From an uncultured Ignavibacteriales bacterium (GTDB lineage: Bacteria; Zixibacteria; MSB-5A5; GN15; FEB-12): a DNA stretch of 34,813 nucleotides. Every line of letters starts with the position of its first letter. The stretch's first letter is position 1. The notes under the pieces are model-generated. The model saw only the letters and a program-made list of their open reading frames with translations. It did not search any database and was not told where the DNA came from. Of the stretch, positions 2,061-34,812 are shown in pieces. The translations under genes and the position numbers were made by a program. The stretch is taken from contig CAZXRO010000001.1 of assembly GCA_964642435.1 (NCBI GenBank), positions 12,268 to 47,080 of the forward strand, written 5' to 3'.

Positions 2061-4211
2061 TCAGGAGGTCGCCTCTTCGCCTTCGCGGCGGTTTTCATCG
2101 AGCAGACGGCAGCCTTCCATGAGAATGGACTCGTTGGAAAGTTCGTTGTTCGGTTCGGGCAGCTCCTCGCGGCCGACCGGTTCGACGAGCCAATGTCCTT
2201 GTGACCACGCGATGGCGTCGTAGACGGCCTCGGGGCCGGTTACCTCGCCGCATCGGGCATAGTGGATTTGTCCCTTGGAGAGGAACATGATCAGTTCACC
2301 GGTGCGATCGTGGTTGCTGAGGGTGAGCTTGGCGGTCTTGCGGCTTGGTCCGAGGGCCTGCAGCAGATCGATCAGGTTCATGTCGGAGAGGCGGCCGCGG
2401 GATCCGGACTGGTTTTCGACTGTCTGGCGCTGGACGCGAGCCTGCTCCTCGGCCTGGGCGCGGATTTTTTGCATTTTGATCAGCAGGAAGTCGATATTGA
2501 CATCGTGCGCAATGATATCCTCGATTCCGCGGTCGAACAATTCGGTCAGGCGCGAGGTGGCGGCGCTGGGGACCAGAAGGAAAGTGGGGACATTGCGGAA
2601 GTTGACATTGTCGGCGGCGAGTTTGTCGACGAATTCGACGATACTATCGGGGGCGCCATCAAGCATGAGCACGAGCATATCGGGCTGGCTGCGCAGCCAG
2701 AGGTCGACGAGAGCCTCTGGGGAGTCCTCGCAGATGACATTGTATCCCTCGTTCTTGAGACGCATCTCGACCGAGCCGAGTTTTTGCTGCACGTTGCCGA
2801 AGAGCATGATCTGGCCGAACTTGTCGGAGGCGTGGACCTTGAGGATGTCATCCTGGATCATACCGATGAAGGCCTCGACTACCTCGGTCAGGAACAGCTT
2901 GCCGGCGAGGTCACGGAATTTGCGCTTGATGGCATCGAACTTGTCCAGTGACAGCCTCTGATCCAGGGGGACATTGTCGCAGAACAAATCGACGATGGTG
3001 AGGATATTGCCGCCGAGGACTTCAATCGGCAGGCGCTTGCGGTATTTGCCACCGAGGTTAATGTACATGGAGCGCAGCATCTCGATGGCGACCGGGGAGT
3101 AATTCAGCGAGGTCAGCAGCTTGATGGTAAGGTTGATCACGGCCCGGTAGTCCTGGCTTTCATCGGTCTGGTAATAGAACTTGGCGAGATCGTGCAGGTA
3201 GCCGGCATTGGCGATCATGAGGCGTTCTTTTTCCGGGATTTTGAGTTTCTGGCAGAGCCGATCGACATACTCGCCGACCGTCCCGGAGTGGTTAACCTCC
3301 ATATTGGAGCGCGTGGAGAGCAGCGAGGTGAACAGCTCCAGGTTCTGGAGGAGCAGTTCGCGCTCGGTGCTGACGGCGTCTTCATGGAGGATCAGCGACG
3401 AGGAGGACTCATAGTAGCGGACGACGGTCCCGGGCGAGATTTTGCGGACGCGATCGATGAGGTCGATATAGTCGCCGCTGACGGTGTCCTTGATGAACAC
3501 GGTGTGGAAGCGGGTATCGCCGATCAGGTCGATGGCGTCATCGGCGGAATCTGTCACGGTGACGAGGTATTCATCGCGTTCGAGCAGGGACTGCAGCAGC
3601 GGCCCGGAGAATTCTTCATCGGTAACCAACAGGATATGGCCTTTGCCGGTGACCTTGATAGATCCGGTATCGGAGTTATCGGGGTCCCAGACAGGTATCC
3701 GGCCGGTGTCGGTGGCCTCGTTAGGGATTTCCAGCGCGAGCAGTTCTTCGAGGCTGATCTTCTTGCCCTGGTAGTGGCGAGCGATGGAGGCCCTCAGGGC
3801 GATCTCGGCGGCGACATACAGTTTAACCTGTTTTCCGCGGGCGACGAAATTGAGCTCGTTGATCAGGTCCTGGTCTGAGGGATCCTCGCAGGCGACCTTG
3901 AGTTCGTTGGACTCAGGGTTATAATCAAAGGGGAGCACTTTGCGGGCGATGGCAACCTTGGCGGGGAGGAATTTCAGGATGAGGTCGGGGATTTCGAGGT
4001 TGGCCAGCACGACCCCCTCGCAGCCGAACTGTTTGGCGAGGACCTTGACCAGGTCGGCCTCGGTCAGGTAGCGGTGGTACAGCAACTGCGAGCCGACCTT
4101 GCCACCCTGGGCCTTCTGGCGCATGAGCGCTTCCTTGAGTTGATCCTCAGAGACCAGTCCCTCGCGCAGGAGGATCTGGTCGAGCCGTAGTTTTTGTGTT
4201 CCCTCGCCCAC
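2061..4211 (-). CDS. Multidomain signalling protein: MshEN/T2SSE_N-like c-di-GMP-binding N-domain, receiver-like domain, degenerate HD(-GYP)-like domain, second pseudo-receiver, C-terminal DUF4388/PATAN-like domain
   Basis: N-terminus RLDQILLREGLVSEDQLKEALMRQ-KAQGG-KVGSQLLYHRYLTEADLVKVLAKQ. Receiver-like block HILLVTDEE...TVFIKD. HD motif AGYLHDLAK. Second receiver-like block lacks the acidic pair (MLFGNVQQ...LVLMLDG). C-terminus GRLSDMNLIDLLQALGPSRKTAKLTL...GQIHYARCGEVTGPEAVYDAIAWSQGHW is typical of DUF4388. The GTG start shares one nucleotide with the pilT stop (TAGTG). Confidence 0.8.
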   Translation of the reverse strand: MGEGTQKLRLDQILLREGLVSEDQLKEALMRQKAQGGKVGSQLLYHRYLTEADLVKVLAKQFGCEGVVLANLEIPDLILKFLPAKVAIARKVLPFDYNPESNELKVACEDPSDQDLINELNFVARGKQVKLYVAAEIALRASIARHYQGKKISLEELLALEIPNEATDTGRIPVWDPDNSDTGSIKVTGKGHILLVTDEEFSGPLLQSLLERDEYLVTVTDSADDAIDLIGDTRFHTVFIKDTVSGDYIDLIDRVRKISPGTVVRYYESSSSLILHEDAVSTERELLLQNLELFTSLLSTRSNMEVNHSGTVGEYVDRLCQKLKIPEKERLMIANAGYLHDLAKFYYQTDESQDYRAVINLTIKLLTSLNYSPVAIEMLRSMYINLGGKYRKRLPIEVLGGNILTIVDLFCDNVPLDQRLSLDKFDAIKRKFRDLAGKLFLTEVVEAFIGMIQDDILKVHASDKFGQIMLFGNVQQKLGSVEMRLKNEGYNVICEDSPEALVDLWLRSQPDMLVLMLDGAPDSIVEFVDKLAADNVNFRNVPTFLLVPSAATSRLTELFDRGIEDIIAHDVNIDFLLIKMQKIRAQAEEQARVQRQTVENQSGSRGRLSDMNLIDLLQALGPSRKTAKLTLSNHDRTGELIMFLSKGQIHYARCGEVTGPEAVYDAIAWSQGHWLVEPVGREELPEPNNELSNESILMEGCRLLDENRREGEEATS

Positions 4212-5293
4212 TATGCATCTGCCATTTCAGGTTCGTGTTCGCTCGTGCGCGCCAGGAAGGAGTCGGGGTTATTGGCGACACGGATAGCTTCGGCGGAGTC
4301 GATCTGGCCGGAGTCCAACAGCGCCTTGAGGTGATTGTCGAGCAGGCGCATGCCTTTCTTGCGTCCGGTCTGGATCTGGTTGGGGATCTGGTAGGACTTG
4401 TGCTCGCGGATGAGATTAGTGATGGAGGTTGTCCGCAGCATGAGTTCATAGGCCATGACCCGTCCGTGACCATCGGTGCGCCGCACCAGTTGCTGCGACA
4501 CGACTCCCTGGAGGGAATCGGCCAGCATGACACGGACCTGCTGTTGTTGATCGGGCGGGAAGACATCGACGACGCGGTCAACCGTTGCTGATGCGGAGCA
4601 CGTGTGGAGGGTGCCCATGACCAACAAACCGACCTCGGCGGCGGTGATAGCCAGTTGGATGGTTTCGGTGTCTCGCATCTCCCCCACCATGATAACATCG
4701 GGATCCTCGCGCAGGGCCGCTCTGAGGGCGGCGCCGAATGTTTGCGAATGGACGCCTATCTGGCGCTGGGAGATAAGCGAGTTGTGGCTTTCGTGCACGT
4801 ATTCAATGGGATCCTCAAGGGTTACCACATGGCGACAGCAGTTGGTGTTGATATGGTCGACCATCGCGGCGAGGGTCGTCGTCTTGCCGGAATTGGTCGG
4901 GCCGGTAACCAGTACCAGACCGGATTTGAGCTGGGCCAGACCGGTGACATGTTCGCAGAAGCCGAGATCTGCCAACGATGGCGGGTTGTCGGGGATGAGC
5001 CTGACGGCGACGGCCGGGCCGAGGTGCATCATGTACAAGTTAATTCGGAAGCGGGCCACTTTGGGTACGCCGTAGGCGAAATCCAGATCGCCGGTTGATT
5101 CGAATCGTCGAATCTGTTCATCGGTGAGGATCTCGAAGACCAACTGGCGAATATTATCGGCCGAGAGCCGTTTGTGGCGGGTCTTTTCGAGTTGACCGTT
5201 GATTCTGACGACCGGAACGCTTCCGGCTGCCAGGTGGAGGTCGGAAGCGTTGGCTGTCTTTACGATCTCCAATATCTCATCTATGCGTGGCAT
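4211..5293 (-). CDS. pilT: Type IV pilus retraction (twitching motility) ATPase PilT
   Basis: ASDLHL..G..P..RI.G motif, Walker A GPTNSGKTTT, EDPIEY, Asp-box/Walker B DPDVIMVGEMRD and His-box GTLHT. The 360-aa length is typical of PilT/PilU. Confidence 0.95.
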   Translation of the reverse strand: MPRIDEILEIVKTANASDLHLAAGSVPVVRINGQLEKTRHKRLSADNIRQLVFEILTDEQIRRFESTGDLDFAYGVPKVARFRINLYMMHLGPAVAVRLIPDNPPSLADLGFCEHVTGLAQLKSGLVLVTGPTNSGKTTTLAAMVDHINTNCCRHVVTLEDPIEYVHESHNSLISQRQIGVHSQTFGAALRAALREDPDVIMVGEMRDTETIQLAITAAEVGLLVMGTLHTCSASATVDRVVDVFPPDQQQQVRVMLADSLQGVVSQQLVRRTDGHGRVMAYELMLRTTSITNLIREHKSYQIPNQIQTGRKKGMRLLDNHLKALLDSGQIDSAEAIRVANNPDSFLARTSEHEPEMADA

Positions 5294-8768: not shown

Positions 8769-9347
8769 ATGGAACACAAATTACCGGATCTGCCCTTTGA
8801 CAAGAAGGCGCTTGAGCCTCACATTTCGGCTGAGACGTTTGAGTTTCACCATGGCAAGCATCACCAGGCGTATGTGAGCAAGCTCAATGGGATGATCGGG
8901 GGCACGGAGTTTGAGGATGCCTCGCTGGAGGAGATTATCAAGAAGGCTGATGGCGGCATATTCAACAACGGCGCCCAGGTGTTCAATCATACGTTCTTCT
9001 GGAATTGCCTGAGTCCCGATGGTGGTGGCAAGCCGACCGGTGCACTGGCGGAGGCTATCGAGAAGAAGTGGGGATCATTTGAGAAGTTCAAGGAGGACTT
9101 TGCCAATACCGCGGCGGGGCTGTTTGGTTCGGGCTGGACGTGGCTGGTGAAGTCCGGCGATGGTTCGCTTGAGATCGTCCCGATGGGCAACGCGGGCAAC
9201 CCGATTCGCGATGGTAAGACGCCTCTGCTGACACTGGATGTGTGGGAGCATGCGTATTATATTGACTATCGCAATGCGCGCCCGAAGTTTGTCGATGCTT
9301 TTTGGAATGTGGTCAACTGGGATTTTGTGAGTAAGAATTTCGGATAG
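8769..9347 (+). CDS. sodB: Iron/manganese superoxide dismutase (Fe-type by sequence feel)
   Basis: [32 protein letters not shown]...[14 protein letters not shown]...[16 protein letters not shown] shows canonical Fe/Mn-SOD ligands and motifs. An extended -10 element TGATACAAT lies upstream. Confidence 0.95.
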
Positions 9348-13125: not shown

Positions 13126-14067
13126 CTACTTCAGGCCGAGCACCCACACGAATCCCAGCCACTGTAACCGCGAGTATTCCCAGCCGACGATTCCCACGAG
13201 TTTCTTGCGAACCATGCCGGCGACAATCGGTCCGTGGGCGGGATCATCGTATTCGAGAGAAAGCTCAGGTTCGGGGAAATTGAGCGTGTCCGGGGCGGGG
13301 CTGACGGTGCCCACCTCGCGGGCGTGATCCCTGAGCGTGATGAAGCTCTCGCCGGTGGTATCGAAAATCATGAAGAAGATGACGGTATCGCCATCGATAT
13401 CATAGAGAGTGCTGTAGGCTTCATCGAGTCCCTGGATATCCAGAAAGTCTCGCGGGTGATAGTGAGTGGAGCTGAGGATACGGTCCCTGTCGGGGAACAT
13501 CTTGATGAAGATGGGCAGCGGGTCGGTGTCCTCGATGTTGGCTTCGATTTCGCGGGCGAGGATGGACTGAGCGCCGAGGTCGTCGGCTTGCCGGGTTTCT
13601 GAGGAGATGGTGACGACGCAGTGATCTTTGATGAACCAGGTATGTGGTCCCTCGGCCCAGGAATCCTTGCCCAGACCAACCGGTGGTGAGGCGAGTGGTC
13701 GCTGGTGGGCGAAATAGCCGTAGGCATCGGGCACGGTAGCGAACTGGCTGATCTCGCTTGAGAGCGTATCATCCTCGACGGTATACGTCGCGCGCGTCTG
13801 GCCGACGAAGCTGTAATATCGCAGGATCTTCAGGCTATGGTCGAGCGCGGTATCTTTGGCTGTTTCTCTCGCGGTGACGGTCTTGAGCGGGTCAAGGCGT
13901 TTTAGTTCGTAGGTAGGGTTATCATCGGGCAGATACTGATCTGCGAAGTATGGCGTCTCGACCGGGGGTGGCAGTTGGTCGGCGTTATCGGTTTTTGGGG
14001 TGTCATCGGAACAGGCACTCAGCAGTGCCAGTGTAAGAAGCACAGGTAGTGGATAGAGTCGTTTCAT
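13126..14067 (-). CDS. Lipoprotein of unknown function
   Basis: MKRLYPLPVLLTLALLSAC has a signal peptide and lipobox. The ATG overlaps the stop of the upstream UbiA-family gene (ATGA). The longer 444-aa tracked ORF is an artefactual 5' extension through that gene. Confidence 0.75.
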   Translation of the reverse strand: MKRLYPLPVLLTLALLSACSDDTPKTDNADQLPPPVETPYFADQYLPDDNPTYELKRLDPLKTVTARETAKDTALDHSLKILRYYSFVGQTRATYTVEDDTLSSEISQFATVPDAYGYFAHQRPLASPPVGLGKDSWAEGPHTWFIKDHCVVTISSETRQADDLGAQSILAREIEANIEDTDPLPIFIKMFPDRDRILSSTHYHPRDFLDIQGLDEAYSTLYDIDGDTVIFFMIFDTTGESFITLRDHAREVGTVSPAPDTLNFPEPELSLEYDDPAHGPIVAGMVRKKLVGIVGWEYSRLQWLGFVWVLGLK

Positions 14068-14933
14068 AGTATATACAACACGATTACAACGGTTAGCAGC
14101 CACAGGCTGACATCGAGGAGGATGGGGCGATCGGTAATGAGCACGCGGGTAGGCGAGCCGCCTTTTTCCTCCTTGTGGATGAGATATAAGTAACGAAAGA
14201 TACCATAGAGAACGAACGGGATAGTAATGAACAGGTAGTCGGTGTTGAGCTTTTCGCGGACTTCGGCGGAGAAGGTATAGAGCATATAGACGACTACGAC
14301 GGAGGCGGTCACAATCCCGATGAGTTGGTCGAGCAGGTATGGGGAGTATTTGGAGAGAATGGTGCGGTGGGACGCGGCACCGTCGATATAAACCAGCTCG
14401 TGGCGGCGTTTTCCGAATCCGAGGAAGAGGGCCAGGAGCATAGTATTGATAATGAGCCATTTTGAGGCGGGGACCTCGATGGCCACGGCTCCGGCATAGG
14501 CTCGCAGGACGAAGCCGATGGCGATTGTCATGACATCGAGAATGACGATGTTCTTCAGTGAGAAGCTGTAGAGTACGTTCAGGGCAACGTAGGCAACGGC
14601 GAGATACAGCAGTGACCAGTTTATGAAGAAGGCCACGGCGAAGCCGACCCCCCAGAGAAGGAGAATCATCGCTATCGCGGTAGTTGGCGAGACCGTTTTG
14701 GCGGCGAGGGGGCGGTTTTTTTTGATGGGGTGAAGGCGATCGCGTCTTCGGTCAATCAGATCATTGAAGGTATAGACGCCGCTGGAGACAAGGCAGAAGA
14801 CGGCTACGGCGGCGAAGGCGACCCCGACCATCCGGACATGGGCCAGTTCCCCGGCGAAGACGAGAGCGGCCAAGACGACACCGTTCTTGAGCCAGTGGGT
14901 TGGTCGGGCCAGTTTTAGGATCGCGCGAAGCAT
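14064..14933 (-). CDS. UbiA-family prenyltransferase, decaprenyl-phosphate phosphoribosyltransferase (DPPR synthase)-like
   Basis: ARPTHWLKNGVVLAALVF, the Asp-rich motif NDLIDRRRDRLHPIKKNRPLA, about 8 TM helices and a second motif region KRRHEL. The pattern matches the Rv3806c-like subfamily as recalled. Confidence 0.85.
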   Translation of the reverse strand: MLRAILKLARPTHWLKNGVVLAALVFAGELAHVRMVGVAFAAVAVFCLVSSGVYTFNDLIDRRRDRLHPIKKNRPLAAKTVSPTTAIAMILLLWGVGFAVAFFINWSLLYLAVAYVALNVLYSFSLKNIVILDVMTIAIGFVLRAYAGAVAIEVPASKWLIINTMLLALFLGFGKRRHELVYIDGAASHRTILSKYSPYLLDQLIGIVTASVVVVYMLYTFSAEVREKLNTDYLFITIPFVLYGIFRYLYLIHKEEKGGSPTRVLITDRPILLDVSLWLLTVVIVLYIL

Positions 14934-16667: not shown

Positions 16668-18131
16668 CTAATCCGAGAGAATGTAATCGCTGGCGCGCAG
16701 TCCGTATTTGCGCGGGTCGATGAGGCGCACGATCTTTCGCCTGGCGTGCTCCTCTTCAGACAGGTCGGCCCACTGGGGGATTTCGAGCAGTCCGCGATCG
16801 TTGCCGATAATGCGGACAAACGGGCGTGACGGCTGGTGCCGGTTGTAGCCGACGACGAGTGCGACCTCGCGGGTGGACAGCAACACCATGGAGCCGGGCG
16901 GATAGACTCCGACCATATCGATGAACAGCTTGAGAAGGAGCGAGTCGTATTTCTGGCCCTCTTGACCGTGCATGCGTCGCATGGCTTCGGCCGGAGTCAC
17001 TTTCTCTTTCATGTAGACGCGGCCGGAGGTAAGAGCATCGAAGGTATCGGCAATACTGATGATTCGCGTGAACAGGTTGGGGGCACGTTGGTCGCACGCG
17101 AGTTTGGGATAGCCGCTGAGATCGACGGCGATGTGGTGTTCGAAGGCACACCGGGCGGCCCGGGCGGCATAGACATCGTGATGGATGTGACGCAGGATGG
17201 TCTTGGCGCCGAGCAAGGGGTGCTGTTTCATCTGGAGCCAGTCGTTCTCGTTGAAGCGTTCGGGCTTGCGTATGAGATCCTCGGGCAGTTTCACTTTGCC
17301 AACATCGTGGAAGAGGGCTGAAAAGCCGAGTTGTGATAAGCGAGAGCGATCGAGTCCGAGCTGGACACCGAGTGTCAGGGAATAGACACAGACGTTGGTG
17401 GAGTGGGCATAGGTGTAATCGTCGTAGTCACGGATGGCAGTGAGTTCAATGAGCGAGGAGTCGTCTTTGAGGATGTGTTCGATCAGGCCCTGCACGACTC
17501 GTCGGGTCTTGGACATGCTGATTTCGCGGTCTTTGGCGGTGCCGGAGATGATGTCTTCGGCCACAGCCATAGCGCGGAAGAATGTTTCGCGGGCGGAGCG
17601 ACGGAATCGTGCCCGGACAGCATCGGAAAACGCCGGAAGCTCCTCCTCGATCTGCTGAATACTGAGCAGTTGGATGCCCTCGAGTTTGCAGTTCTTGACG
17701 CGTTCGGAGAGTTGCTCGACATTGTCCTCGTCGACTTTCAGCCCGGCCAGGAAGACCACGAAATTGATCAGGTGTTCCCGTCGCAGTTGGGATGAGAATT
17801 TGACTCCGGCCAGTCCGAGCATTTTCCACTCGGCCAGGATGGTATCGGCACCCACGTTACCGGCCTCATTGAAGCGGACCATGCGGTCGTTGACGAAGAA
17901 CCTGCGGGAAATCCTCTTGATGGAAATATCGCGGCGATCGATCCGAAGGGCCTGGAGACGTTCGATGAAGGCATCGGCCTGACGGGCAAACATGGCATTG
18001 GTGGCATCGATAATACGCGCTGTTTTGTACATGACGAAAAACGCGCTGACGAGTCGCTCTTCCTCGGGTCCGCCGAGGACGCGCATGAGATCAATGGAAG
18101 CATCAGCCGACATTACCTTATTCATCGCCAT
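16668..18131 (-). CDS. HD-GYP domain cyclic-di-nucleotide phosphodiesterase with uncharacterised ~230-aa N-terminal domain
   Basis: HSTNVCVYSL...ALFHDVGKVKLP...HPLLGA...HHIAVDLSGYPK...ADTFDALTSGRVY is a complete HD...GYP signature. Confidence 0.92.
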   Translation of the reverse strand: MAMNKVMSADASIDLMRVLGGPEEERLVSAFFVMYKTARIIDATNAMFARQADAFIERLQALRIDRRDISIKRISRRFFVNDRMVRFNEAGNVGADTILAEWKMLGLAGVKFSSQLRREHLINFVVFLAGLKVDEDNVEQLSERVKNCKLEGIQLLSIQQIEEELPAFSDAVRARFRRSARETFFRAMAVAEDIISGTAKDREISMSKTRRVVQGLIEHILKDDSSLIELTAIRDYDDYTYAHSTNVCVYSLTLGVQLGLDRSRLSQLGFSALFHDVGKVKLPEDLIRKPERFNENDWLQMKQHPLLGAKTILRHIHHDVYAARAARCAFEHHIAVDLSGYPKLACDQRAPNLFTRIISIADTFDALTSGRVYMKEKVTPAEAMRRMHGQEGQKYDSLLLKLFIDMVGVYPPGSMVLLSTREVALVVGYNRHQPSRPFVRIIGNDRGLLEIPQWADLSEEEHARRKIVRLIDPRKYGLRASDYILSD

Positions 18132-20010
18132 ACCTCCGTTGCCGATAGGCGGTCAGGGCGAGCCGAGCCTGCCGCCGGATATCCTGACGCCAGAATTTTG
18201 CGAGTCGTTCCAGTAGTTCTTCTGCCTCCTCGCTTGGGTTCTCGGCCAGGGCCAGGAAGGCGGAAGTGCGTCTTTCTTTCATGACGTTATTGCCCATCAG
18301 GTTCAGCGGGGTGATCATGGCCTGGAGGTAGTCCAGAACGTCTTTGCCACCGAGGGCGGAGTATGCTACCAGTATCTGGCGCAGTTGACCGGGGCTGAGC
18401 AAGGCTCCGCTTCGGGGATCATCGAGGATTTCCGCCAGGGCCTCGAATGCCGAGTCGCTGCGGCGGGACAGCAAGGCCTTGATGGCATCAGTACGAAGCC
18501 GTTCATCCGGGTCGAAGACGAGCTCGTAGAGCATAGCGGTAGCGTTCTTGCTGATGTTGTTTCGGACCGCGTCGAGCAATTCGCGTCTGACGCGGAACTC
18601 CTCGTGGTTCAGGGCGCGCTTGATATTGGCGAGCGCCTTTTCGTTTCCGATACGGCCGAGAATCATCACGGAATTGCGAACCACGAACCATCGTTTGTCA
18701 TACATGGTCCTGGCGATGATATCGATGTTGTCTTTGCCGACAACGGCCAGATAGTCGCAGAGTGTCTCGCGATGATGGCGGTGGTTGAAATCGCCCAGGA
18801 GGTCGGTGATGGCGCTGAGTGCTTGCCAGCCGAAATTGCTGAGGTAGCGCTTGAGTTCCTCGGCACCGATTCGAGGGTGGTCGTTCAGGGCGCCGGCCAG
18901 GTGCTGCATGCGCTCCCGTGTTCCGAAAGCCTCGCGAGTCTCGGCTGCCTTGTCGGCCCAGAGTTGTCGTGATTCGGCGAGAGCTGAGCGGATCTCATCG
19001 AGATAGGCAATCAGGCGTGTGGCCTGGATCAGATCGCCATTGTCAATCAGGCTGGAGGTTATCTTCTCCACGATCTGCAGGGTTTCGCAGAAGCCACCGA
19101 ACTCGATCTCCTGGTTGAGCATTTCCTGTAACAGGGCAACGGTGGATTCATCGGGATCGAAACCGGCATCGTCTGCGATCAGCTCGGCGATACGTTTGCG
19201 CTCGGATTGGGTCAGATTGACCTGGTCGTTGAAAATGAGTGTGGTATCATGTGCCGCTGACGGCTTTTGAGAACTGACTGACCGATCGTGCGGACCTGTG
19301 ACGGAGGGGATATTGGACAGTGAGAGGCTTTCGCCACCACCGCTGACGTCCCCGAACTTATCCTGCTCGTCGCTGTCATCGACAATATCGAGCGTCTTTA
19401 TCTCGCCGCACTCGTTGAGGTCTACCTCATTGCGGGCCAGCTCTTCCCTGAAGATATCAAGGTACTTCTGCACATCCTCATCGACGATGTGCGGATCTGA
19501 GGCGTCGACATTCCGGCTCAGATAGGCCTGGATATCGAACTCGTCATCGTAGACAGACAGCGAGATGTCCTCCACCGTCTCGATCTCGAAGCCGCCGATA
19601 TTGGCTTCCCAGATTTCGGCAGCGAGATCACCGACTTGACTGCCGCTGTTGAGATAGTCGCGGAAGACATCGATCAGCCGTGAGAGGTCCGATGCCGTCA
19701 TCATGGGGGTAAATGTAAAGCCGGTGATACCGGTGTGGAAGAACAGGGCAGCGAGCGCCTCGTCACGCGAGCGGTCGAAGTAGACGACCTCGTGTTCCCA
19801 GTTCAGCTTGTCTGCCTCGACGGTGATGTGGATGTCATCGTACTCATCGAGCATGGTGAGCAAGTCCGCGGCCAGGCGCTTCTTCTGCGCATGAGGCAGG
19901 GGATTGTCAGCCGGGTAGGTTGCGACCACCTTGATGACTTTCAGGAAGTCCTTGAGAAGGTGGCCAACCGCCAGGCGTCGTGCGGTATGGGTCTTTGGGC
20001 CGTCTGTCAT
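18118..20010 (-). CDS. HEAT-repeat protein with uncharacterised N-terminal domain and acidic linker
   Basis: C-terminal HEAT/PBS-lyase-like repeats (WFVVRNSVMILGRIGNEKALANIKRALNHEEFRVRRELLDAV...DPDERLRTDAIKALL). The stop overlaps the HD-GYP start by 14 nt. Confidence 0.8.
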   Translation of the reverse strand: MTDGPKTHTARRLAVGHLLKDFLKVIKVVATYPADNPLPHAQKKRLAADLLTMLDEYDDIHITVEADKLNWEHEVVYFDRSRDEALAALFFHTGITGFTFTPMMTASDLSRLIDVFRDYLNSGSQVGDLAAEIWEANIGGFEIETVEDISLSVYDDEFDIQAYLSRNVDASDPHIVDEDVQKYLDIFREELARNEVDLNECGEIKTLDIVDDSDEQDKFGDVSGGGESLSLSNIPSVTGPHDRSVSSQKPSAAHDTTLIFNDQVNLTQSERKRIAELIADDAGFDPDESTVALLQEMLNQEIEFGGFCETLQIVEKITSSLIDNGDLIQATRLIAYLDEIRSALAESRQLWADKAAETREAFGTRERMQHLAGALNDHPRIGAEELKRYLSNFGWQALSAITDLLGDFNHRHHRETLCDYLAVVGKDNIDIIARTMYDKRWFVVRNSVMILGRIGNEKALANIKRALNHEEFRVRRELLDAVRNNISKNATAMLYELVFDPDERLRTDAIKALLSRRSDSAFEALAEILDDPRSGALLSPGQLRQILVAYSALGGKDVLDYLQAMITPLNLMGNNVMKERRTSAFLALAENPSEEAEELLERLAKFWRQDIRRQARLALTAYRQRRYGDE

Positions 20011-22809: not shown

Positions 22810-24558
22810 ATGAGTGAACATTCCGAACATACTCGCCTTGAGAAGCTGCTTTTGGAGGCGGCGCGGGTTTTCAATTCCACCCTTGATTATGAGGTTCTGA
22901 TCGAGCATGTGTTGCGGCTGGTGCTGACAGCAGCCGACTGCGAGGTAGCGTTGATATTCCGGGTAGATCATGAGCGGACCGACATGAAGATCCGTTACAT
23001 GAAGGCCGATGTGGGCCGGGTGGCGACGTATCGTCGGGAGCTGGGCCAGGGTGTCCTGGACTGGGTAGCGCAGTTCAGGGAGCCGGTAGTGATCAACAAT
23101 GGTTCGAATGATCCGCGTGTGGAATACGAGAATGCCGAGCGGATGCAGATTCAGATTCGGTCGTTGATGAGCGTGCCGCTGATTGCCAAGGGGCACATGA
23201 TCGGGGTAGTGGAGGCATTCAACAAGAACAATGGTGGGTTCTCGGCGGCCGATTTGGACACGATGATAGGGTTGAACAATCAGATAGCGGTGGCTATCGA
23301 CAATGCCCATTTGTACCGCCTGGCCCAGCGGGAGGCCCTGGAAAAGGACCTGCTGTATGAGGTTGGCAAGATGCTGTCCGGCAGTCTTGATTTGGATGAG
23401 TTGCTCGAAGCGATCATGGACTCGTTGAAGCGGGTGGTCAGGTATGATGGTGGCGGTGTCTTCCTGCTGAACCCGGAGAAGAATGAGATCGATTCGATTT
23501 ATGCGCGTGGCTATGATTCCGAGGTCGACCCGCATTTGCAGCTCAAGGTAGGTCAGGGGTTGATCGGGCACGTGGCGCGCGACGGCCAGCCGGTGATTGT
23601 TCCGGACGTATCGAAGGATGACCGTTATTTCAATTCGCGGCCGGAGACAAACAGTGAGATCGTGGTGCCGATGCGGTTGGATGATCGGATAATCGGGGTA
23701 TTGAACCTGGAATCGAATCATTTGGGTGCGTTTGGTCAGCACGACCTGCTGCTGATCGAGGCGTTTGCGAGCCAGGCGGCAGTGTCGGTTGAGCGGGCTC
23801 GCAATCACACGCGGTTGATTCAGAGCAAGAAGATCGAGGAGCAGCTCAATATCGCAAGGGAGATTCAGCGCAGTTTCCTGCCGATCCGGGATCCGAAGAT
23901 CACGGGCTACGATGTCGCGGGGCGCAATGTTTCCTCGGGGGAGGTTGGAGGAGATTACTATGGGTTTATCGACATTGTCGAGGGGCAAACCGGTGTGGCG
24001 ATTGCGGATGTATCCGGCAAGGGTATCCCGGCGGCGCTGATCATGGCCTCATATCGGGCATCGCTGATCGCGGAGATACGCAACAATTACTCGATTCGCA
24101 CGATTTGCGAGAAGGTGAACCGCCTGATGTGTGAGTCGATCAAGCCGGGGAATTTCGTGACCTCTGTGTACGGTGTGCTCGACTCAGTCAATCACGTGCT
24201 GACTTTCGCCAACTGTGGTCACAATTTGCCGTTTGTGCTGCGGGTGTCGGATGAAGTGACCTATCTGCGTGAGGGCGGACCTGTTATGGGAGTTGATCCC
24301 ACCGGGACGTATCGGGAGCAGCCGATTTATCTGAGGGCGGGAGATGTGGCAGTGCTATACACGGATGGGGTGACCGAAGTCTTCGATGATGACGGAGTGG
24401 AGTTTGGGCTGGAACGGCTGATTGAGGTAGTTCGATCAAACCGCGACAGAAGTTCAGCGGAGATTGAGGACGCAATCTATCACACGGTCCGCAGTTACGC
24501 CGGTCCGGATCATATGTTCGATGATCTGACGATGGTGGTTGTCAAGCGCCTGGTTTAA
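22810..24558 (+). CDS. GAF-GAF-PP2C (SpoIIE/RsbU-type) serine phosphatase
   Basis: Two GAF blocks (...GQGVLDWVAQFREPVVIN...MSVPLIAKGHMIGVVEAFN; ...GQGLIGHVARDGQPVIVPDV...VVPMRLDDRIIGVLNLES). SpoIIE core: REIQRSFLP, GGDYYGF, ADVSGKGIPAALIMA, YTDGVTE, DDLTMVVVK. Confidence 0.92.
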   Translation: MSEHSEHTRLEKLLLEAARVFNSTLDYEVLIEHVLRLVLTAADCEVALIFRVDHERTDMKIRYMKADVGRVATYRRELGQGVLDWVAQFREPVVINNGSNDPRVEYENAERMQIQIRSLMSVPLIAKGHMIGVVEAFNKNNGGFSAADLDTMIGLNNQIAVAIDNAHLYRLAQREALEKDLLYEVGKMLSGSLDLDELLEAIMDSLKRVVRYDGGGVFLLNPEKNEIDSIYARGYDSEVDPHLQLKVGQGLIGHVARDGQPVIVPDVSKDDRYFNSRPETNSEIVVPMRLDDRIIGVLNLESNHLGAFGQHDLLLIEAFASQAAVSVERARNHTRLIQSKKIEEQLNIAREIQRSFLPIRDPKITGYDVAGRNVSSGEVGGDYYGFIDIVEGQTGVAIADVSGKGIPAALIMASYRASLIAEIRNNYSIRTICEKVNRLMCESIKPGNFVTSVYGVLDSVNHVLTFANCGHNLPFVLRVSDEVTYLREGGPVMGVDPTGTYREQPIYLRAGDVAVLYTDGVTEVFDDDGVEFGLERLIEVVRSNRDRSSAEIEDAIYHTVRSYAGPDHMFDDLTMVVVKRLV

Positions 24559-34380: not shown

Positions 34381-34812
34381 TTAGTGCGCGTGCCCATGTT
34401 CGGCATAATACAGATTCTTGAACTCGGTCAACAGAGACTCCAGCCGCTCGGAATGGGCCATATCCACGGTCTGCTTGCATTTCATGGCTGAAACAATCAT
34501 CTGGTGGCACAGCAACACCTTACGCTGATACTCCTGGTACGCAGCGGTCTCATTAGCGTCTACCACGGGAATGCGCTGGGCGAGGAAGTACTCCGAAATT
34601 GTTGTCTGAAACTTCTGGGCGTGATCTTCTTTGTTCATTATCCAGCGTACCAGTTGATTCTGGTTCTGTGCTCCTTCGGGTGAGAGGCTGTCAATCAGTC
34701 GCATGCTCTTGTTGATGGTCTCGATATGCTGATACAACTCATCGAAGACGATGGAATCACCGTATATCCCGCAGGGTATCTGGCAGTGACTGCGGCCCTG
34801 GTTCGGCAGCAC
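34381..34812 (-). CDS. sodN: Nickel superoxide dismutase (NiSOD) precursor; 5' end at or beyond the window edge
   Basis: Ni-hook HCQIPCGIYGD (consensus HCxxPCGxY) preceded by a short leader. The remainder has a four-helix-bundle character and appropriate length. Confidence 0.88.
   Translation of the reverse strand: MLPNQGRSHCQIPCGIYGDSIVFDELYQHIETINKSMRLIDSLSPEGAQNQNQLVRWIMNKEDHAQKFQTTISEYFLAQRIPVVDANETAAYQEYQRKVLLCHQMIVSAMKCKQTVDMAHSERLESLLTEFKNLYYAEHGHAH

Follow-up and report, generated by a model that had tools for sequence, protein, structure and literature searches.

Within a 34,813-nucleotide stretch of DNA from an uncultured Ignavibacteriales bacterium (assembly GCA_964642435.1, contig CAZXRO010000001.1, positions 12,268 to 47,080 of the forward strand; hereafter the window), a pilT-family ATPase gene is translationally coupled to the gene for a 716-residue multidomain protein, here called the partner, and this pairing recurs in distantly related genomes; it is ancient and common among uncultured Zixibacteria, the organism itself being related to Zixibacteria/GN15. 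From comparison of the sequences we suggest that the partner is probably a dedicated regulator of the PilT to which it is linked, and that it may not sense c-di-GMP (cyclic dimeric guanosine monophosphate), the signal named in a first-pass annotation of the same DNA. Both genes of that annotation were confirmed; their strand, which it had not given, is minus. The locus consists of:

4211..5293, minus strand: pilT-family ATPase gene, 360 amino acids, ATG start; TIGR01420 440 bits; 7.7e-97 to P. aeruginosa PilT 3jvu.
2061..4211, minus strand: partner gene, 716 amino acids, GTG start; MshEN, short receiver (REC), HD-GYP-like, pseudo-receiver and PATAN domains.
4209..4213, minus strand: TAGTG junction, in which the pilT stop TAG and the partner start GTG have one base in common.

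The letters at the junction read GAT GCA TAG / GTG GGC GAG with the overlapping G at position 4211, which bears out the one-nucleotide overlap proposed earlier, and the geometry for co-expression is thus real. The GTG start is in accordance with the family as a whole, since homologues all begin about 8 residues ahead of a conserved RLD, and residues R9, Q32, K38 and Q61 therefore share the numbering of V. cholerae MshE. The pair stands apart from other pilus genes: as had been noted, none of pilB, pilC or pilM-Q is present among the long open reading frames (ORFs) of the 34.8-kb window, and neither the window nor any of the flanks fetched for related loci yielded a further pilus gene. Rfam and tRNA scans of the window returned no matches, and hence no c-di-GMP riboswitch ahead of pilT, while a promoter and terminator scan of the window gave sites no commoner than in shuffled sequence, its sole element being a weak hairpin after the partner gene (1916-1933).

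The pairing is conserved well beyond the window. We fetched 92 related loci and scored 87 for adjacency, 67 of them with enough upstream sequence; some are near-duplicates, so that the counts overstate independence. A full, same-strand pilT lies directly upstream of the partner in 39 of these 67 loci, a pilT remnant of about 80 codons in six, and neither in the other 22. On a neighbour-joining tree, adjacency is seen in nearly every subclade and also in the deepest clade (L082-L086), where pilT is upstream although the partners are 26-28% and the PilT proteins 56-58% identical; a further member of this clade, L092, was found separately, likewise has pilT upstream, and brings the range for deep-clade partners overall to 24-28%. 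Flanking genes vary from locus to locus while the pairing persists. The spacing between stop and start in 38 related loci was -4 (nine loci), -1 (11), 0 (six) or +1 to +24 (12), which places 26 of the 38 at -4, -1 or 0. Given this spread across the tree, we take the adjacency to be ancestral, with several later losses. The idea that it is conserved in relatives thus held, down to 24-28% partner identity and across differing flanks, with the restriction that the arrangement has been lost or has decayed in about 40% of the informative loci. Judged from this distribution, the module dates back at least to the divergence of the main Zixibacteria clade from its deep sister clade.

The partner architecture itself is not rare. 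Full-length homologues of about 712 amino acids and 50-64% identity make up more than 120 clusters and, where named, are called 'DUF4388 domain-containing protein' and come from candidate division Zixibacteria or GN15; in an exhaustive profile search at least 221 clusters (50% identity) reached E<1e-30, all of them annotated simply as DUF4388 proteins, and the alignments stayed full-length to as low as about 24% identity. The same search also recovered shorter MshEN-REC-PATAN forms, on contigs that were too short or in which no pilT was seen. In a sister clade whose motif I is degenerate (P0151-P0198 type), the gene does not adjoin pilT. A genome scan with the single protein found two near-identical loci only, and is silent on distant synteny. 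At one related locus (L005:4437-6368), the pilT-partner pair has immediately upstream, in divergent orientation, a gene for a methyl-accepting chemotaxis protein (4HB_MCP-HAMP-MCPsignal).

The domain list read earlier from the letters of the partner (MshEN, receiver, HD, second receiver, DUF4388) proved right when profiles, an AlphaFold2 model and Foldseek were combined. Profile searches recovered both MshEN and DUF4388 above their curated cut-offs (PF05157, residues 62-150, 46.6 bits vs 23.1; PF14332, residues 606-707, 57.8 bits vs 25), and the NCBIfam c-di-GMP_motif model NF053729 matched residues 9-61 (49.1 bits vs 38). Scores for the central domains stayed below cut-off (Response_reg, PF00072, 18.8 bits vs 30.2; HD 17.3; HD_5 13.5 vs 27.2), and we retain these receiver and HD assignments because the model and its Foldseek matches back them. 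The model, built from an alignment of 84 homologues and with a mean predicted local distance difference test score (pLDDT) of 91.4, divides the chain into MshEN (9-150), a disordered linker (160-186), a four-stranded receiver-like domain (192-275), a helical domain (277-462), a complete receiver fold (467-599) and PATAN (604-715). Foldseek matched it to an MshE-c-di-GMP structure, PilF GSPII domains, three HD-GYP structures and receiver proteins; a search of a viral structure library gave just generic receiver and kinase matches. No paper on this architecture was found in our literature searches, in line with the earlier remark that the combination is not known from a characterised protein. 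The parts of the partner are:

4029..4187, minus strand: MshEN N-subdomain, residues 9-61; NF053729 49.1 bits; two 24-residue motifs with a 5-residue spacer.
3762..4028, minus strand: MshEN C-subdomain (alpha/beta), residues 62-150; PF05157 46.6 bits; Foldseek 5htl 1.8e-7.
3702..3752, minus strand: linker motif LEELLALEIPNEATDTG, residues 154-170, at the start of the low-confidence linker (pLDDT <50 for 160-186).
3384..3641, minus strand: receiver-like domain 1, residues 191-276; four strands; D198/E199, D242, S269; no beta5 or Lys.
2826..3383, minus strand: HD-GYP-like helical domain, residues 277-462; Foldseek 9rc0 3.8e-5, 4mcw 4.4e-5, 4r8z 3.3e-4; aligns to the near-canonical homologue P0222.
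2415..2816, minus strand: pseudo-receiver domain 2, residues 466-599; full (beta-alpha)5 fold; canonical counterpart in P0222.
2067..2405, minus strand: PATAN (DUF4388) and C-terminal helix, residues 603-715; PF14332 57.8 bits; AlphaFold2 pLDDT 95.3.

Residues in the N-terminal part of the partner co-vary with the presence of pilT. R31 and R47 of the MshEN N-subdomain and R212 on helix 1 of receiver 1 are Arg in 31 of 31 pilT-adjacent loci, deep clade included, and in all six remnant loci, while the R47 column in 15 non-adjacent loci holds Gly in 11, Arg in two, Lys in one and Gln in one. By our count on the tree, about five non-adjacent lineages lost R47 separately, whereas none of the adjacent ones did. 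The linker motif, L-(D/E)(D/E)-x-LLL-(E/D)-IP-(D/E/N)-xxT(D/E)TG at residues 154-170 (LxxLLLEIPD), is present in every pilT-adjacent locus, as a recognisable variant in the deep clade; it is deleted or scrambled in long-standing non-adjacent clades and kept where pilT is, or recently was, adjacent. From adjacent to non-adjacent members, conservation falls most in the MshEN N-subdomain (0.73 to 0.56) and the linker (0.34 to 0.13), and only slightly in PATAN (0.58 to 0.52). This comparative evidence, the co-variation of N-terminal residues together with a stable PATAN, argues that the N-terminal region carries a PilT-specific function and that PATAN would be a general output.

In the subclade with the pilT remnant (L011:3716-3960, L013:3716-3960 and L017:3381-3625; also L010, L012, L016, L019, L054 and L065), the partner is 60-63% identical to that of the window. 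The remnant ORF of about 80 codons joins PilT residues 1-32 to about residues 68-98 and lies some 100 nucleotides before the partner, which is intact and still has R31, R47, R212 and the linker motif. The remnant represents a recent pseudogene or else a micro-ORF that has been conserved.

The linked ATPase is a PilT by its profile (TIGR01420 439.9 bits vs a cut-off of 319.1), and its nearest solved relatives are bona fide PilT proteins. The core motifs are present, with Walker A GPTNSGKT, the Walker B and catalytic Glu region DPDVIMVGEMRD, the Asp box LEDPIEY and TLH230, in which H230 is the gamma-phosphate His; the motif SITNLIRE, similar to AIRNLIRE, is also kept. Two positions depart from the canonical Walker A GPTGSGK and from the first His-box His (ETGH in P. 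aeruginosa PilT):

4892-4894, minus strand: N134, Asn in Walker A GPT-N-SGK.
4625-4627, minus strand: L223, Leu in place of the first His-box His.

The N134/L223 signature, with the gamma-phosphate His kept, is found in 39 of 39 partner-linked PilTs including those of the deep clade. Of the 120 nearest PilT clusters, the Asn is present in 116 and the Leu in 112, and no cluster has His at the L223 position. By these sequence features the partner-linked PilTs are an orthogroup of their own. Across the superfamily, high conservation is limited to a single His of the His box (McCallum 2017). In PilB, the equivalent of the first His-box His helps to sandwich a Thr at the inter-subunit interface. 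The non-canonical Walker A and His-box residues, the lack of any other pilus gene in the window or the fetched flanks, and the many bacteria with PilT paralogues of unknown role would all suit a different reading, namely that this PilT-like ATPase and the partner serve a process other than type IVa pilus retraction (for example another type IV filament, DNA uptake or secretion) and that 'pilT' is a family label. We consider this quite unlikely; the profile score of 440 bits and the closeness to bona fide PilT structures stand against it, as do the retained AIRNLIRE-like motif and the presence in the partner of MshEN and PATAN, both of them type IV pilus-associated domains.

The partner's N-terminal domain is related to the N1 domains of extension ATPases, matching those of PilF and PilB at 1e-26 to 1e-17. 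Its motif I (R9-L-D11...G18...Q32) and motif II (K38-V-G40...R47...L54...L58...Q61) are in exact register with V. cholerae MshE, as 24-residue motifs 5 residues apart, and the AlphaFold2 model places them in a four-helix bundle (helices 10-17, 22-35, 39-45 and 51-62). R9, L10, Q32, K/R38, G40, L54, L58 and Q61 are kept family-wide, non-adjacent members included, and every group shows little or no variation at R9, L10, D11, Q32, K/R38, G40 and Q61. Motif I has Asp at its third position in 68 of the 84 aligned homologues (D11 in the window protein) and Gly in one; in pilT-linked members, R47 puts an Arg at the turn-Gly (GAS) position of motif II. The two-subdomain fold and motif register are shared with V. 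cholerae MshE, the GSPII domains of T. thermophilus PilF and the PilB proteins of Geobacter and Myxococcus, whereas in the window protein no ATPase is attached, the gene adjoins that of a retraction-type motor, motif I reads R-L-D rather than R-L-G, and motif II has Arg for the turn Gly.

At the other end of the chain, the proposed C-terminal DUF4388/PATAN-like domain was confirmed by its PF14332 score, although the match covers only 102 residues of a 122-position model. PATAN is among the best-conserved domains of the partner, with G647, W669, G672 and N688 invariant in the family. A PDB fold search with PATAN alone gave a best E of 0.27, which means that no solved structure with the PATAN fold was found. 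The nearest described proteins are the PatA-type regulators (PixE, PixG, LsiR, TaxP), in which a PATAN domain (PF14332) also stands beside a receiver-fold domain, acts as the output domain and is linked to the type IV pilus motor. The order in these proteins is PATAN-REC, whereas the window protein has a C-terminal PATAN preceded by a receiver that is a pseudo-receiver, and carries three extra N-terminal domains. The first-pass annotation cited a computational link between PATAN and surface motility; in cyanobacteria, experiments link PATAN to PilB and PilC and not to PilT: in Synechocystis, PATAN binds the N-terminal domains of PilB1 and PilC (Han et al., bioRxiv 10.1101/2021.06.11.447907), a binding known only for proteins of that cyanobacterium. 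The partners of PixE and its relatives are PilB1 and PilC, not PilT, while the window partner is genetically tied to pilT.

Based on these comparisons, we suggest a two-gene module in which the partner would be a signalling adaptor for its particular PilT, with the MshEN ligand controlling access of PilT to the pilus platform; we give this specific proposal about an even chance of being right. The N-terminal part of the partner would be a free-standing copy of the N1/MshEN domain that PilB, MshE and PilF carry and PilT is without. MshEN, the LxxLLLEIPD linker motif and helix 1 of receiver 1 might together form a PilT-specific interface or switch through which the N-terminal region engages the cognate PilT, while PATAN, by analogy with the cyanobacterial PatA-type regulators, would be a generic output that docks on the pilus base at the N-terminal domains of PilB and PilC. 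A small ligand in the MshEN four-helix bundle, possibly c-di-GMP or a related nucleotide held in a variant site, would decide whether PilT is delivered to the platform or excluded from it, and access of PilT to the platform would in turn set the balance of extension and retraction. In the main clade, the Asp pocket of receiver 1 and the H..HD..D site may add a second input. What the sequences show is the coupling of the genes, their ancestral synteny, the signature of the PilT orthogroup and the co-variation of residues; the binding steps of this scheme are all ones that we infer.

Several observations weigh against this proposal. In six relatives a decayed pilT stands beside an intact partner and about a third of the informative ones have no adjacent pilT, which implies that the partner has a PilT-independent role too. 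The co-variation with adjacency is phylogenetically structured and amounts to about five independent losses. PATAN did not bind PilT1 or PilT2 in the sole experimental PATAN study (bioRxiv 10.1101/2021.06.11.447907). As for the ligand, even the relaxed search pattern of Wang et al. requires Gly at the third position of motif I, and D11 and R47 both violate that pattern; in PilF GSPII-A, c-di-GMP affinity is 10-30 fold lower with Ala instead of Gly at the third position of motif II, because the Ala side chain points into the pocket.

Some of these same points would be explained if the partner regulated the extension side only, with PATAN acting on PilB and PilC and pilT merely co-transcribed, without direct contact to PilT. 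This would be in accordance with the binding of PATAN to PilB1 and PilC rather than PilT1 or PilT2, with the many relatives that lack an adjacent pilT, and with the good conservation of PATAN, which has most of the family-invariant residues and stays conserved after pilT loss. It leaves unexplained, however, the fixation of R31, R47, R212 and the linker motif at pilT-adjacent loci, the separate PilT orthogroup, and the stop/start overlap kept across about 25% partner identity, and we therefore regard an exclusively extension-side role as unlikely.

The 'c-di-GMP control' put forward earlier is not secured, with Asp at the motif I Gly and Arg at the motif II turn Gly, and we see the prospects of canonical c-di-GMP binding by the partner MshEN as roughly evenly balanced in view of D11, R47 and the precedent of PilF GSPII-A. 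The strict conservation of the remaining site nonetheless argues for some ligand. It is also conceivable that the MshEN-like domain binds no ligand at all and is a decoy or mimic of PilB N1, competing with PilB for a platform site or held by its own PATAN, with regulation through receiver 1, the HD site or expression level alone. The break with the binding consensus at D11 and R47 speaks for this, as do PilF GSPII-A, an example of an MshEN fold that can be a non-binder, and the affinity of Synechocystis PATAN for the PilB N-terminal domain, both kinds of domain being here on one chain. We nevertheless think it very unlikely, as R9, L10, L25, L29, Q32, K38, G40, L54, L58 and Q61 persist down to about 25% identity, which is hard to square with a pure scaffold, and the NCBIfam c-di-GMP motif model passes its cut-off. 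The window holds a further gene that bears on the signal:

16668-18131, minus strand: candidate for an active HD-GYP phosphodiesterase, 487 amino acids; HD_5 73 bits; HD, EHH and GYP motifs.

This candidate makes c-di-GMP turnover plausible in this organism. Its start overlaps by 14 nucleotides the end of an upstream gene for a 630-residue HEAT-repeat protein (18118-20010, minus strand).

A bolder form of the adaptor proposal, which we hold only tentatively and believe to be the less probable, is that the RLD-type MshEN is a working second-messenger receptor, for c-di-GMP in an altered mode or for another nucleotide read by Asp11, and that it directly clamps or releases the dedicated PilT hexamer through R31, R47, the linker peptide and R212. 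If true, it would be the first receptor to place the retraction motor, and not the extension motor, under direct second-messenger control, and PilT would be supplied in trans with the N1 domain that PilB has in cis. The control of type IV pili by second messengers or PATAN described in the literature we searched (c-di-GMP through MshEN, FimX-PilZ, PATAN regulators) acts on the extension motor PilB or MshE, and no dedicated PilT-bound receptor was found there. The FimX-PilZ-PilB system of Xanthomonas and Pseudomonas is similar in that degenerate turnover domains make up a c-di-GMP receptor, which acts on a type IV pilus ATPase via the ATPase N-terminal domain to control it; it differs in its unrelated domains (GGDEF/EAL, PilZ) and in its target, the extension motor PilB. 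The locus studied here is conserved and compact, with two genes that tie a specialised PilT genetically to a PilB-like sensory domain and a PATAN output. Comparative genomics singles out R31, R47, R212, the linker motif and D11, the last being a natural Gly-to-Asp variant of the MshEN motif that bears on ligand choice. The main limitation is that the host organisms are uncultured.

Between MshEN and PATAN, the central domains have lost part of their canonical residues. The conserved positions of receiver 1 and the HD-GYP-like domain are located as follows:

Minus strand: residues 198-199 at 3615-3620; 242 at 3486-3488; 308 at 3288-3290; 340-341 at 3189-3194; 408 at 2988-2990.

Receiver 1 has only four strands, beta5 and the Lys being missing; D198/E199, the acceptor D242 and S269 are conserved in the main clade, so the acceptor Asp ascribed to it was indeed found. 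In the HD-GYP-like domain, the tetrad H308, H340-D341 and D408 is present in 54-77 of the 84 homologues, whereas HHE is replaced by S381-M382-Y383 and GYP by G388-K389-Y390. A PDB sequence search with the HD region gave chance-level matches only, and its HD-GYP kinship follows from the structure matches and the alignment to P0222. The description as a degenerate HD(-GYP) domain was correct in that HD is kept and GYP is gone, but the domain is not simply dead; a wholly degenerate domain was rejected, as selection acts on the H..HD..D tetrad within the main clade. From these residues, phosphodiesterase activity of the HD-GYP type is unlikely and there may be a mononuclear metal site. Receiver 2 has an intact fold, with G562 and D565 nearly invariant, from which every phospho-site residue is gone: G472/N473 replace the acidic pair, whose absence had been noticed before, the acceptor column is Asp in 7 of 84 homologues, and the Lys is missing from a variable column.

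The receiver-1 pocket and HD tetrad show strong conservation throughout the main clade, with or without an adjacent pilT, and are wholly absent from the deep pilT-linked clade, so that neither is needed for the link to PilT. They may represent a separate input specific to the main clade that lies outside all of the explanations offered here.

The succession of a receiver and an HD-GYP-fold domain is shared with the RpfG family, and JGI lists the 93% homologue as 'response regulator RpfG family c-di-GMP phosphodiesterase'. With receiver 1, the HD-GYP-like fold and a NosR-family match of 1.2e-7, one might thus take the partner for an ordinary RpfG-type response regulator with c-di-GMP phosphodiesterase activity. 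We give almost no credence to this, considering the S-M-Y and G-K-Y replacements of HHE and GYP, the HD_5 score of 13.5 vs 27.2 bits, a receiver 1 without beta5 and Lys, and a receiver 2 without phospho-site residues. Compared with the RpfG family, only the H..HD..D tetrad is left, the receiver is truncated, and the unit is set between MshEN and REC-PATAN. The inactive proteins HnoD and ECA3548 have altered catalytic motifs as does the partner, which suggests a role in protein interaction or sensing.

The metagenomic protein P0222 (840 amino acids, L090:205-2727) has the same domain order as the window partner, with 26% identity over 538 residues, and its parts are near-canonical: it has a K-I-G motif, an HD_5 match of 94 bits, a true receiver with Asp and Lys (86 bits) and a PATAN of 85 bits. 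Its contig is too short to reveal the upstream gene. By its motifs P0222 probably resembles the ancestral active form, and together with the shorter forms it leads us to see the window protein as a degenerate derivative of an MshEN-REC-HD-GYP-REC-PATAN architecture.

Other genes of the window were noted in passing. At 22810-24558 (plus strand) lies a gene for a GAF-GAF-SpoIIE (PP2C-type phosphatase) signalling protein, followed with a 20-nucleotide overlap by a 361-residue ORF without a family match. Two superoxide dismutases are encoded in the 35-kb stretch, one of the Fe/Mn type at 8769-9347 (plus strand) and one of the Ni type at 34381-34812 (minus strand), whose ORF extends to within one base of the window end. 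The ORFs for a DUF6599 protein and a UbiA prenyltransferase (13126-14460 and 14064-14933, both minus strand) overlap by about 400 nucleotides as mechanically listed, and the downstream gene of the two probably starts later than its first in-frame start codon.

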